DNA from: Escherichia phage vB_EQ1 | Sequence record: PQ516281 | DNA: 64,000 nt | Strand: one strand, 5' to 3' | Part shown: one piece after another, positions 44,768 through 46,455 of the stretch | How the letters are laid out: each line of letters begins with the position of its first letter | How positions within the stretch are numbered: position 1 is the stretch's first letter | The notes under the pieces: generated by a model | What the model saw: only the letters and a program-made list of their open reading frames with translations | What the model was told of the DNA's origin: nothing | Database searches by the model: none | Translations under genes and position numbers: made by a program

Positions 44768-45427
44768 TTAACCTCGATTCATAAATGCATTAAATATTTG
44801 GTCATCAACAGAAATTTCTAATTCGACTTCAATTGCTTCAGCCTTTTCTTCAGGTGGTAATTCGTATCCACACACTACAATTTTTTCATCGATATCAAAA
44901 TATACAGAAGCAATACGATTAATGTTATTTTCGGTTAAGTCTAAATCAACATCAACATCTTTTTGACCTACACTTAAAGGATAACTAATACGGATTATTT
45001 TATTATCTTTAACAAAGAGTCCACCAACATACTCTGTGCTACGTTTGAAGTTTACACGTTTCCGAATTGAAAGATATGATACATCTTTACCGTGAGCTCG
45101 GCTCATAGGACATAATGAATAACTAGAATAAGAGATGTCAAATCCTACACCTTCAATATGAGCCAACGTGTCATGAGTAAACCAATTATAATCATATGCC
45201 AAATCCATTATATTGTAATACGTGAAAGGCACAGGATTAACATCATATGTTGTACCTTTAAAATCTGCCCAGGCAACGATTTCGTTATCTTTAACAATTA
45301 CAAAAATTACACCAATATGGTATCCGTTATTATTTTCATTCGGCGTTATATTATAACATTGTGCATTAGGAAATTTACCATATTTAAATGGTGCGTTTTT
45401 GTGCATGTAATAAATCATATTATTCAC
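44768..45427 (-). CDS. hypothetical protein
   Basis: ORF track 219 aa. Confidence 0.6.
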   Translation of the reverse strand: MNNMIYYMHKNAPFKYGKFPNAQCYNITPNENNNGYHIGVIFVIVKDNEIVAWADFKGTTYDVNPVPFTYYNIMDLAYDYNWFTHDTLAHIEGVGFDISYSSYSLCPMSRAHGKDVSYLSIRKRVNFKRSTEYVGGLFVKDNKIIRISYPLSVGQKDVDVDLDLTENNINRIASVYFDIDEKIVVCGYELPPEEKAEAIEVELEISVDDQIFNAFMNRG

Positions 45428-45713
45428 CTGTGATTTCGGTTACGATATCTTTGTTATCGAAATTAGGGTCACAATACAAAACATAATTGTACTGCATGAT
45501 ACCGCCAGACTTAAGTTGTTCAACAACTTTATTAACCATATTAGGACGGTCTCGTTTAGTGATGTTCATGATATCAGAGAAGATTTGTTGTTCAACATCT
45601 TCTTGATTTGCAGTCATTGACCACTCACAGAGGTCTTTATCATAACCTGCCGTAACTGGAGCTGGTGCACATGATACTGCAAGTAAGATTGCTGCCAATG
45701 ATAACTTTTTCAT
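45420..45713 (-). CDS. sp: spackle periplasmic protein Sp
   Basis: 97 aa with signal peptide MKKLSLAAILLAVSCAPAPVTAG then YDKDLCEWSMTA...LKSGGIMQYNYVLYCD..., matching T4 Sp as recalled. Confidence 0.85.
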   Translation of the reverse strand: MKKLSLAAILLAVSCAPAPVTAGYDKDLCEWSMTANQEDVEQQIFSDIMNITKRDRPNMVNKVVEQLKSGGIMQYNYVLYCDPNFDNKDIVTEITGE

Positions 45714-45742
45714 TTTAACTCCTTAGTTGATTTGATAGGACT

Positions 45743-45772
45743 ACTATACTATAGTCCATCTATAATGTAAAC
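45743..45772 (-). promoter_or_regulatory. early promoter GTTTAC-N18-TATAGT for sp
   Basis: Upstream of sp ATG. Confidence 0.55.
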
Positions 45773-45776
45773 AAGT

Positions 45777-46025
45777 TTATTCTTTTTCGCGAATAATAAT
45801 TACTTGTTGAGGCTGCTGAGCAGATTTCTTTTCGGCAACGATAGACCAAATTAAAGTTCCAATCCAACCAACCATCGTCCAGTTAAAGAGTAAAGATACA
45901 AAGAAGATTGCTGTTGTGCTTTTTGTGCCACGAATAAGTGCGATTACCCAAGGCAACATGTAAATGATGATTGAACCAATACCTGCGATTAAAACTGCTA
46001 TTGAACTAGCTACGAATAATTCCAT
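45777..46025 (-). CDS. small inner-membrane protein (two TM helices)
   Basis: 82 aa MELFVASSIAVLIAGIGSIIIYMLPWVIALI...; early promoter upstream. Confidence 0.65.
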   Translation of the reverse strand: MELFVASSIAVLIAGIGSIIIYMLPWVIALIRGTKSTTAIFFVSLLFNWTMVGWIGTLIWSIVAEKKSAQQPQQVIIIREKE

Positions 46026-46053
46026 GTTAATTTCCTCTTGATTTGTTATGTTT

Positions 46054-46083
46054 ATAATATCTTGTTTTGGCTTTGGCGTAAAC
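46054..46083 (-). promoter_or_regulatory. early promoter GTTTAC-N18-TATTAT
   Basis: Upstream of membrane-protein gene at 45777..46025. Confidence 0.55.
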
Positions 46084-46086
46084 CAA

Positions 46087-46455
46087 TTAGTTAAATTTGT
46101 TTAAACGTTCAATACACTGGATGTAGTTATTCGCGATTTGTTTCTGGGTAGGCTCTTTACCGGTTGTTTCAACATAGCGAATGAATGCGATTTCAGTAGC
46201 CTGTAGACAATGTTCTTTAACGCGTTGTTCTTTTGACAATGCTACAGTATCAGAGTCACGATAACGTTGAGCATGAGCATCAGCTTGAATCATTCGATTA
46301 CCTACAGTAACTGGGTCTTCCACTTCAACTTTAGGTTGGTCATACTGTTTAACATTTGGATTGTAAATCAGTTGGCCAACGTTATTAGGGATAAAGCCAT
46401 GGGCACCACATCCGGTTAATCCGAATACCATTGCTAAAGCGATTAATTTTTTCAT
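46087..46455 (-). CDS. putative lipoprotein
   Basis: 122 aa; signal peptide MKKLIALAMVFGLTGC with lipobox LTGC. Confidence 0.65.
   Translation of the reverse strand: MKKLIALAMVFGLTGCGAHGFIPNNVGQLIYNPNVKQYDQPKVEVEDPVTVGNRMIQADAHAQRYRDSDTVALSKEQRVKEHCLQATEIAFIRYVETTGKEPTQKQIANNYIQCIERLNKFN

Follow-up and report, generated by a model that had tools for sequence, protein, structure and literature searches.

The sp-imm-imm.1 cluster of an RB69-like phage and the possible place of the lipoprotein Imm.1 in superinfection exclusion

Introduction

What do three consecutive small genes with envelope-bound products do for an RB69-like phage, and is any of them new? The genes occupy positions 45420-46455 of the window, which is the whole 64-kb stretch of DNA analysed here. 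An earlier note on this DNA, made from the letters alone, saw in them an early module of superinfection exclusion or lysis inhibition, consisting of a signal-peptide periplasmic protein, an 82-aa two-helix membrane protein and a lipoprotein that it did not recognise as a T4 component at this position. The mechanisms of two T-even exclusion proteins have been worked out, that of Sp in 2020 and that of Imm in a 2026 preprint. Imm.1 is the obvious remaining gap in a textbook phenomenon.

The locus and its annotation

The identity of the genes is clear. Positions 45420-46455 hold the RB69/Mosigvirus arrangement of the known T-even early genes sp, imm and imm.1. All three ORFs are present, all on the minus strand, and their surroundings include three promoter motifs.

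45420-45713, minus strand: sp (gene 61.3), Spackle, 97 aa; Pfam T4_Spackle, phrog_1586
45743-45772, minus strand: T4-early-type promoter motif 5' of sp, GTTTACA-N17-TATAGT
45777-46025, minus strand: imm, inner-membrane superinfection immunity protein, 82 aa; Imm_superinfect, phrog_1039
46054-46083, minus strand: T4-early-type promoter motif 5' of imm, GTTTACG-N17-TATTAT
46087-46455, minus strand: imm.1, predicted lipoprotein with lipobox LTGC, 122 aa; DUF5481, phrog_1754
46484-46513, minus strand: T4-early-type promoter motif 5' of imm.1, GTTTACA-N17-TACTAT

The window belongs to an RB69-like Mosigvirus (98% nucleotide identity to RB69, 100% to OQ031495). The RB69 GenBank record of 2003 (AY303349 / NC_004928, 18654-19689) already names sp, imm and imm.1 in the same place, in the annotated order sp, imm, imm.1, 61.4, dmd. 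The genes there have the order, spacing and strand seen in the window, and the proteins are 97-100% identical. Nothing substantial differs, only a few synonymous changes and one or two amino-acid changes per gene. The same cluster was found in about 150 Mosigvirus genomes. It is not new, having been annotated in RB69 since 2003, and as a gene cluster it is ordinary. The family matches of Sp, Imm and Imm.1 all exceed the curated cut-offs. Searches of NCBIfam and PADLOC returned nothing significant, and no Rfam RNA family was found in 44000-48000. Antisense ORFs on the plus strand were rejected, being short and opposite well-supported genes.

In all likelihood, the locus as a whole is an RB69-type exclusion cluster with its own early promoters, encoding three envelope proteins, into which imm.1-imm have been relocated. 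The parts of this explanation differ in strength, and they are taken in turn below.

Early expression

The earlier note called these genes early, and the promoter motifs bear this out. The motif 5' of sp lies inside the 63-nt imm-sp spacer and is followed by an AAGGAG ribosome-binding site, and the motif 5' of imm lies within the 61 nt by which imm.1 is placed upstream of imm. Throughout the window there are 24 GTTTAC-N17-TAnnnT motifs against 5.1 expected, a number that none of 100 shuffles reached. In published omics data, T4 sp and imm.1 are classed as early RNA or early protein, and Imm.1 has been detected as a protein in early T4 infection (PMC9697503 supplements). In T4 the spacer between imm.1 and imm is only 11 nt and the two are presumably co-transcribed, whereas here a promoter motif stands between them. 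Transcription would proceed imm.1 > imm > sp along the minus strand, with an early promoter for each gene, and would bring three small proteins to the host envelope soon after infection.

Relocation of imm.1 and imm relative to T4

In T4 the order is 43 > imm.1 > imm > 42, and sp (between 61.2 and 61.4) is about 6 kb away from imm (between 42 and 43), whereas in the window sp and imm are neighbours. In both RB69 and the window, imm is absent from the 43-42 interval, which contains a sugar-modification cassette of U32-like, NTP-transferase and SIS-domain genes. Could a second copy of imm have been overlooked? The possibility was rejected; imm is single, the 42-43 interval included, and the imm of the cluster is the only one in the window.

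Relative to T4, the imm.1-imm pair has moved from the 43-42 interval to a position directly upstream of sp. One clue to the nature of the move is that the imm.1 5' spacer resembles the T4 imm.1 promoter region (CTGTTTACAAG...TACTAT...CTATCAACTAC), which suggests that imm.1 moved together with its own promoter. The leaders in the region form repeats at 61-76% identity, and recombination between repeated early promoter/leader cassettes is the probable route of the move. A model of this kind, PeSL shuffling, has been put forward (PMC2839356, PMC4122927). The relocation unites all known exclusion genes at one place.

Two classical exclusion proteins

Sp matches Pfam T4_Spackle (PF25676) over residues 1-96 of 96 (1.1e-42, 145 bits, cut-off 27), phrog_1586 (2.9e-42) and the solved T4 Spackle chain 6x6o in the PDB (1.4e-39), and it is 66% identical to T4 Sp. 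The signal sequence that the earlier note had reported is there, with MKK and a hydrophobic core at the N-terminus (Kyte-Doolittle maximum 2.64). The predicted cleavage site, between VTA and GYDKD, aligns with that of T4, between AMA and GYDKD, and would release a 22-residue signal peptide. The mature form of T4 Spackle has 75 aa (PMC7677548).

T4 Spackle (gp61.3; PDB 6x6o, 7cn6) binds and inhibits the lysozyme domain of the tail-tip protein gp5; its gp5-contact residues are S32, M33, T34, Q37 and N76, and it carries a Cys29-Cys81 disulfide (PMC7677548). In the window orthologue C29, C81 and all five contact residues are present at the same positions. From this conservation and the identity to T4 Sp we infer that Sp is here, too, a periplasmic inhibitor of the gp5 tail lysozyme. 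Once exported, it would act against the gp5 lysozyme domain that a phage arriving later carries on its tail tip.

The product of the second gene is hydrophobic at about residues 1-34 and again at about 40-60, in agreement with the two-helix membrane protein of the earlier note, but the note had missed that the protein is Imm itself. It matches Pfam Imm_superinfect (PF14373; 1.8e-15, 57 bits, cut-off 27.9) and phrog_1039 (1.8e-30), and it is 66% identical to T4, T2 and T6 Imm over the full length (82-83 residues). The core LPW..AL.RG...I and NW..GW...IW is invariant (alignment A6), as are the equivalents of T4 R33 and W50 in Imm of T4, T2, T6 and the window. For T4, a 2026 preprint (10.64898/2026.03.06.709160) reports a complex of Imm with the tape-measure protein (TMP) gp29; no conduit forms for the incoming DNA, which remains in the periplasm. 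The substitutions W50A and R33A weaken exclusion, and a plasmid that expresses imm and no other phage gene is enough to exclude T4. The orthologue in the window, which shares R33 and W50 with T4 Imm (P08986), probably binds gp29 and stops DNA entry as well, given this conservation and the overall identity. Its binding of gp29 in the inner membrane would deny the incoming phage a DNA conduit, and the DNA would be left in the periplasm. The gene for gp29 lies outside the window. For T4 Imm an optional upstream start, giving a 94-aa form, has been discussed. The longest imm frame here begins at the 82-aa ATG and therefore there is no T4-like 94-aa form.

Imm.1, a predicted lipoprotein

The earlier note had pointed to an LTGC lipobox on the third protein, and rightly so. 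The N-terminus of Imm.1 (MKKLIALAMVFGLTGC) has LTGC at residues 13-16, with Cys16 as the lipobox cysteine and Gly at +2. The six frames of the window contain 1068 start/ORF combinations of at least 50 aa, and among these Imm.1 alone combines a lipobox with a K/R n-region and a hydrophobic core free of acidic residues. The lipoprotein signal is no chance match.

The suggestion that this lipoprotein is not a T4 component was correct about the position but not about novelty, since RB69 annotation already includes the gene and the protein is, by sequence, the orthologue of T4 Imm.1. It matches Pfam DUF5481 (4.7e-9, 37 bits, cut-off 27) and phrog_1754 (1.2e-28, residues 1-120) and shares 33% identity with T4 Imm.1 across 97% of its length. 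T4 Imm.1 (P18057; DUF5481; phrog_1754) has the YNPNVK-Y and YR-SD motifs and the two C-terminal cysteines in common with it, and both genes lie directly upstream of imm. The T4 protein differs in its lipobox, LAGC instead of LTGC, in an additional pair of cysteines (NCSSKF...KCY) and in the greater length of its tether (VVNQSDVGKI).

It is clear that imm.1 is a real, constrained gene. Coverage of Imm.1 is at least 80% in 654 of the 656 records, pN/pS within Mosigvirus is 0.04-0.05, and the T4 protein has been detected early. Nine divergent members all have C83 and C114, and eight of ten sequence types (8/9 in alignment A4) retain the lipobox Cys. The two types without it, P0002 and P0010, have an ordinary signal peptide, and lipid anchoring is therefore dispensable for the role of Imm.1.

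An AF2 model of Imm.1 (mean pLDDT 64) is confident in the last two helices only and falls below 50 in the first 45 residues. It predicts a helical C-terminal domain, which contains C83 and C114, behind a disordered N-terminal tether. Searching the PDB with this model of moderate quality by Foldseek gave no relative at E<=0.001, a search of PDB sequences with the Imm.1 profile gave no match, and Foldseek against viral models returned only the Imm.1 family itself. By the E. coli +2 rule, the most likely destination of the protein is the inner leaflet of the outer membrane. Imm.1 would be exported, lipidated at Cys16 and sorted there, so that a tether of about 30-45 residues lets a disulfide-stapled helical domain reach into the periplasm.

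Does Imm.1 take part in exclusion?

The earlier note's reading of the locus as an envelope-targeted exclusion module holds for Sp and Imm, the classical T4 exclusion proteins, whereas the share of Imm.1 is only inferred. The basis is its conserved placement beside imm. In all the Tevenvirinae-type lineages examined (T4, T2, T6, three metagenomic lineages, Jiaodavirus, Muldoonvirus, Dhakavirus, Gaprivervirus and the window), a phrog_1754 member adjoins imm or is separated from it by one short ORF. The order of the two genes is inverted in Dhakavirus, and in Gaprivervirus the short ORF 42.1 stands between them. Literature on the gene is sparse. In the articles searched, imm.1 occurs in supplementary tables and is not mentioned in the article text (PMC9697503, PMC11879866). 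It has no assigned function in a 2025 T4 functional-genomics data set, and its knock-down by CRISPRi-ART in T4, classed as 'Not Fit', did not measurably affect fitness during ordinary lytic growth (PMC11879866 supplement).

What if Imm.1 has nothing to do with exclusion? Adjacency can reflect shared regulation rather than shared function. Imm.1 might be a separate early envelope protein that lies near imm only through a shared need for immediate-early expression and export. It could, for example, modulate a host periplasmic or outer-membrane factor, stabilise the envelope or counter a host defence. The lack of a fitness effect on knock-down is consistent with this, as is the observation that plasmid-borne imm excludes T4 by itself, which means that Imm.1 is not required for Imm activity. 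In addition, Imm.1 diverges far faster than Imm (33% versus 66% identity between this phage and T4), and a target other than Imm would fit. However, imm and imm.1 stay together despite the inversion in Dhakavirus, the inserted ORF in Gaprivervirus and the move to another genome region in Mosigvirus, and in the window they have separate promoters, and therefore co-transcription cannot account for their staying together. An independent role for Imm.1 is a serious possibility, though the chances are somewhat against it.

The favoured reading is that Imm.1 would be an accessory, non-essential partner that helps Imm deal with the incoming tail tip or with periplasmic DNA. Its target would be something common to T-even phages and no particular receptor. 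A bolder idea, that Imm.1 is a third component of T-even exclusion, must be called doubtful. Here it would be a lipid-anchored periplasmic protein, co-evolving with Imm and working between both membranes. If this is true, Imm.1 might catch the tip of the tail tube or the tape-measure protein once it is released, or pass ejected DNA to degradation, and Sp, Imm.1 and Imm would make up a three-layer barrier, gathered at one locus in Mosigvirus.

Might Imm.1 instead mask a receptor? Lipoproteins of the Llp/Cor type bind the periplasmic face of an outer-membrane receptor and block further adsorption. T5 Llp and T1/phi80 Cor protect the infected cell and are, as predicted for Imm.1, small, periplasm-facing, disulfide-bearing and early phage lipoproteins (the disulfide of T5 Llp is intramolecular; PMC9586334), and the +2 residue of Imm.1 predicts outer-membrane sorting. 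Nevertheless, there is no Cor/Llp match in Pfam or PHROG, the PDB searches described above found no counterpart by fold or profile, the helical domain of Imm.1 is about twice as large, and two Imm.1 lineages have no lipid anchor. Furthermore, imm.1 adjoins imm among replication genes, with no receptor-binding protein gene beside it. The T-even phages T4, T2 and T6 use different receptors, namely OmpC/LPS, FadL/OmpF and Tsx. Their Imm.1 proteins are 98% identical all the same, which argues against receptor masking. Superinfecting T-even phages also still adsorb and eject their DNA into the periplasm, according to classical work and the RB69 imm annotation. Receptor masking was rejected on the absence of similarity, of variation with the receptor and of a link to a receptor-binding gene, and it is improbable.

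The earlier note's other suggestion, a module primarily for lysis inhibition or lysis timing, is at best indirectly relevant. According to the annotation notes of RB69 and T4, sp mutants were first found by lysis phenotypes (rapid lysis, lysozyme-mutant survival). The DNA of an excluded superinfecting phage stays in the periplasm, and such DNA is linked to the lysis-inhibition signal. However, the direct activities of Sp and Imm target the incoming tail, and expression of the cluster is immediate-early, not late. Those parts of the window that were examined yielded no rI, rIII or t-type (holin) homologue, and none of the family matches in the flanks has to do with lysis. A primary role in lysis is very improbable. 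A small lipoprotein gene by a small membrane-protein gene also has the superficial look of a spanin pair, with Imm.1 as the o-spanin. T4 encodes its spanins, pseT.3 and pseT.2, at another place in its genome. Two-component spanins belong to late lysis cassettes, and their i-spanin has a single N-terminal TM helix and a periplasmic coiled coil. Imm.1 has no spanin family match in Pfam or PHROG, and its partner belongs to the Imm_superinfect family and lacks a periplasmic coiled-coil domain. The early promoter motif and the early T4 protein fit no better. On family assignments and timing of expression the spanin reading was rejected as effectively refuted, with next to nothing left to recommend it.

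Breadth of the Imm.1 family

How widely is Imm.1 distributed? By tblastn, Imm was found in 1033 phage records and three Imm.1 types in 690, 132 and 148 records. A word-indexed search found three Imm.1 proteins with a single sequence and eight with a profile, and an exhaustive HMMER scan of 1.84 billion representatives gave eight matches only. On the evidence of these searches the family is confined to T-even-type phages. Thus narrowly distributed, expressed and under purifying selection, Imm.1 (phrog_1754) is a clear, testable lead.

The short and long types of Imm.1 deserve a comment. With signal peptides removed, hhalign aligned them at a probability of 38-54%, driven by the VVPASEVGKV tether motif; it is the full-length phrog_1754 matches that argue for their homology. 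Among the HMMER matches, one is a 2133-aa protein that aligns through about 25 residues in eight stretches and is probably spurious, and another, P0003, is a probable assembly chimera.

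The sp-imm-imm.1 cluster

The best-supported explanation for the three ORFs at 45420-46455 is that they are the sp-imm-imm.1 cluster of RB69-type phages, already known and annotated. With the cluster itself known, interest centres on what Imm.1 does. The ORFs are consecutive and all lie on the minus strand:

45420-45713, minus strand: sp (Spackle), 97 aa; Pfam T4_Spackle 1.1e-42, phrog_1586, PDB 6x6o (the solved T4 Spackle chain) 1.4e-39
45777-46025, minus strand: imm (superinfection immunity protein), 82 aa; Pfam Imm_superinfect 1.8e-15, phrog_1039 'immunity to superinfection' 1.8e-30
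46087-46455, minus strand: imm.1 (predicted lipoprotein), 122 aa; DUF5481 4.7e-9 (above the gathering score), phrog_1754 1.2e-28

The spacers measure 63 nt (sp-imm), 61 nt (imm-imm.1) and 60 nt (upstream of imm.1). An earlier note had described a signal-peptide Sp, an 82-aa two-helix protein and an LTGC lipoprotein side by side, and coordinates and simple sequence analysis confirm this. Sp begins with MKK and a hydrophobic signal sequence, Imm lacks Cys and contains two long hydrophobic stretches, and Imm.1 begins MKKLIALAMVFGLTGC, with residues 13-16 as its lipobox and Gly in position +2. What if the lipobox is a chance occurrence? The window's six frames contain 1068 start/ORF combinations that reach 50 aa or more; the Imm.1 ORF alone has a complete lipoprotein-type signal, so the observation is real and not chance. 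The two-helix protein is Imm itself, according to family matches and the RB69 annotation. The note's interpretation is supported only in part, as described below.

Over this 1.5 kb, Escherichia phage MRostami-2023e matches at 100% identity, and RB69 and about 150 further Mosigvirus genomes match at 98%. The RB69 GenBank record (AY303349, 2003) names the same ORFs imm.1, imm and sp, in transcription order, flanked by 61.4/dmd and 61.2.

A further feature is found in the Sp signal peptide (45669-45713, minus strand, residues 1-15), where Cys15 has the lipobox-like context A-V-S-C. T4 sp (2259-2552 of L003, the T4 locus) has L-A-S-C at this position. Cys15 precedes A22|G23, the site at which cleavage is accepted to occur.

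Early expression

The description of these genes as early is supported. A T4-type early promoter motif (GTTTAC-N17-TAnnnT) followed by a Shine-Dalgarno sequence is present in the spacer upstream of each gene. The window has 24 such motifs, nearly all on the minus strand, against 5.1 expected, and none of 100 shuffles reached this number. A time-resolved transcriptome/proteome study places T4 sp and imm.1 in the class 'early RNA / early protein' (PMC9697503 supplements), so T4 Imm.1 is truly made.

Relocation of the imm.1-imm pair

The note did not recognise the lipoprotein as a T4 component at this position, a remark that is right about position and misleading about novelty: the protein is T4 Imm.1, relocated. 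The window and T4 proteins are 33% identical across 97% of their length, and the T4 N-terminus, MKIAILVIALGLAGC, is also a lipobox. The T4 order is 43 > imm.1 > imm > 42; sp is at a distance of about 6 kb, with 61.4 and 61.2 on either side. In RB69 and the window, the 42-43 interval has U32-peptidase-like, nucleotidyl-transferase and SIS-domain genes (the RB69 sugar-modification cassette) in place of imm.1-imm. Because this slot is otherwise occupied and imm, imm.1 and sp are each single copy in the window (tblastn), the two genes have shifted together to their site just before sp.

How might this have happened? The spacer upstream of imm.1 resembles the T4 imm.1 promoter region (CTGTTTACAAG...TACTAT...CTATCAACTAC), and the leaders before imm, imm.1 and two neighbouring ORFs (46918-47235 and 47291-47665) are 61-76% alike. 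A published model proposes modular shuffling in T4-type phages via repeated early promoter/terminator cassettes, and the move would fit it (PMC2839356, PMC4122927). A cassette similar to these leaders lies downstream of gene 41 (47666-47753, minus strand), where a GGAGACTTCGGTCTCC hairpin (loop UUCG) is directly followed by a GTTTACA...TATGAT early promoter, a PeSL-like terminator-promoter arrangement.

Sp and Imm as exclusion proteins

Mature Spackle is a 75-aa helical periplasmic protein with a C29-C81 disulfide that binds and inhibits the gp5 lysozyme domain (PMC7677548). Window Sp retains C29, C81 and the gp5-contact residues S32, M33, T34, Q37 and N76. For T4 Imm, a 2026 preprint (10.64898/2026.03.06.709160) reports a complex with the tape-measure protein gp29, lower T4 plating with plasmid-borne Imm on its own, and reduced exclusion with W50A and R33A. 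R33 and W50 are invariant among T4, T2, T6 and window Imm. By orthology, both mechanisms would apply to the window proteins. Given the published mechanisms and the retained residues, the earlier reading of a superinfection-exclusion module is correct for sp and imm; its extension to Imm.1 is inferential.

What does Imm.1 do?

Imm.1 has a very narrow distribution. Of 1.84 billion representative proteins scanned exhaustively with HMMER, only 8 match, and all credible matches are from T-even-type phage contigs. By tblastn, Imm is found in 1033 phage records and three Imm.1 sequence types in 690, 132 and 148. The two genes abut where coordinates are listed for both (e.g., phiKp_22, Shinkou, TU02, PSD2001). 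In every lineage inspected (T4, T2, T6, three metagenomic, Jiaodavirus PKO111, Muldoonvirus, Dhakavirus, Gaprivervirus and Mosigvirus), imm has a phrog_1754 member next to it, with at most one short ORF in between. The order is inverted in Dhakavirus, and a 42.1 ORF intervenes in Gaprivervirus.

Y31, C83 and C114 are invariant in nine divergent members, and eight of the nine have the lipobox Cys. Two lineages (P0002 and P0010, 46-47% identical to window Imm.1) lack it and have an ordinary AHA-type signal peptide with a signal peptidase I site; their gene (6001-6372 of locus L005) is still between 43 and imm. This indicates that Imm.1 acts in the periplasm and that its lipid anchor is dispensable. 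Position +2 is occupied by G, V, A or Q, never by D, which by the E. coli sorting rule predicts outer-membrane anchoring. An AF2 model (mean pLDDT 64) has about 45 disordered N-terminal residues and three helices, only the last two of them confident, and resembles nothing in the PDB or viral model libraries beyond its own family. Within Mosigvirus there are 11 synonymous and 2 non-synonymous differences (pN/pS about 0.05). Between genera Imm.1 diverges faster than its neighbours (33% identity versus 66% for Imm and 66% for Sp).

On the best-supported reading, the immediate-early genes protect the infected cell from a further T-even phage in its periplasm and at its inner membrane, with Imm.1 probably an additional component at the outer membrane. 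Neither inversion, insertion nor relocation has parted imm.1 from the neighbourhood of imm, and in the window they remain neighbours despite separate promoters, which makes an accessory part for Imm.1 in the same process a reasonable, if unproven, reading. The main rival is that Imm.1 has an unrelated envelope role and shares only regulatory needs with imm. When T4 imm.1 was knocked down by CRISPRi-ART, fitness did not change; the study in question assigns the gene no known function (PMC11879866 supplements).

Receptor masking is another idea. T2, T4 and T6 use different receptors, yet their Imm.1 proteins are 98% identical. This argues against a Llp/Cor-like function (PMC9586334).

T4 imm.1 (L003 9137-9514, NC_000866) is an 'iduronate sulfatase' in RefSeq, a name copied to phage IME340, and many other records call Imm.1 an 'immunity protein'; no experimental basis for either name was found. 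P0003, a 198-aa ENA metagenome protein, joins a PolA-like domain to the 28 C-terminal Imm.1 residues (96% identity); a chimera created by assembly or gene calling is the most likely explanation.

Neighbouring genes

Directly downstream of sp, the gp61.2 homologue (44768-45427, minus strand) is a full-length AdfA anti-DarT factor (PF23813, 4.8e-119), so an anti-defence gene adjoins the exclusion genes. Between dmd and gene 41 are two minus-strand ORFs absent from T4, 46918-47235 (105 aa, phrog_2110) and 47291-47665 (124 aa, phrog_10668). Neither has a Pfam match; the RB69 counterparts are RB69ORF040c/041c. In or near the sugar-modification cassette that occupies T4's imm slot, 51361-52260 (299 aa) and 54858-56543 (561 aa), both minus strand, are single ORFs in the window. 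The 2003 RB69 record splits each in two (046c+047c and 052c+053c, respectively). Either the two phages truly differ by frameshifts here or the old record contains errors.
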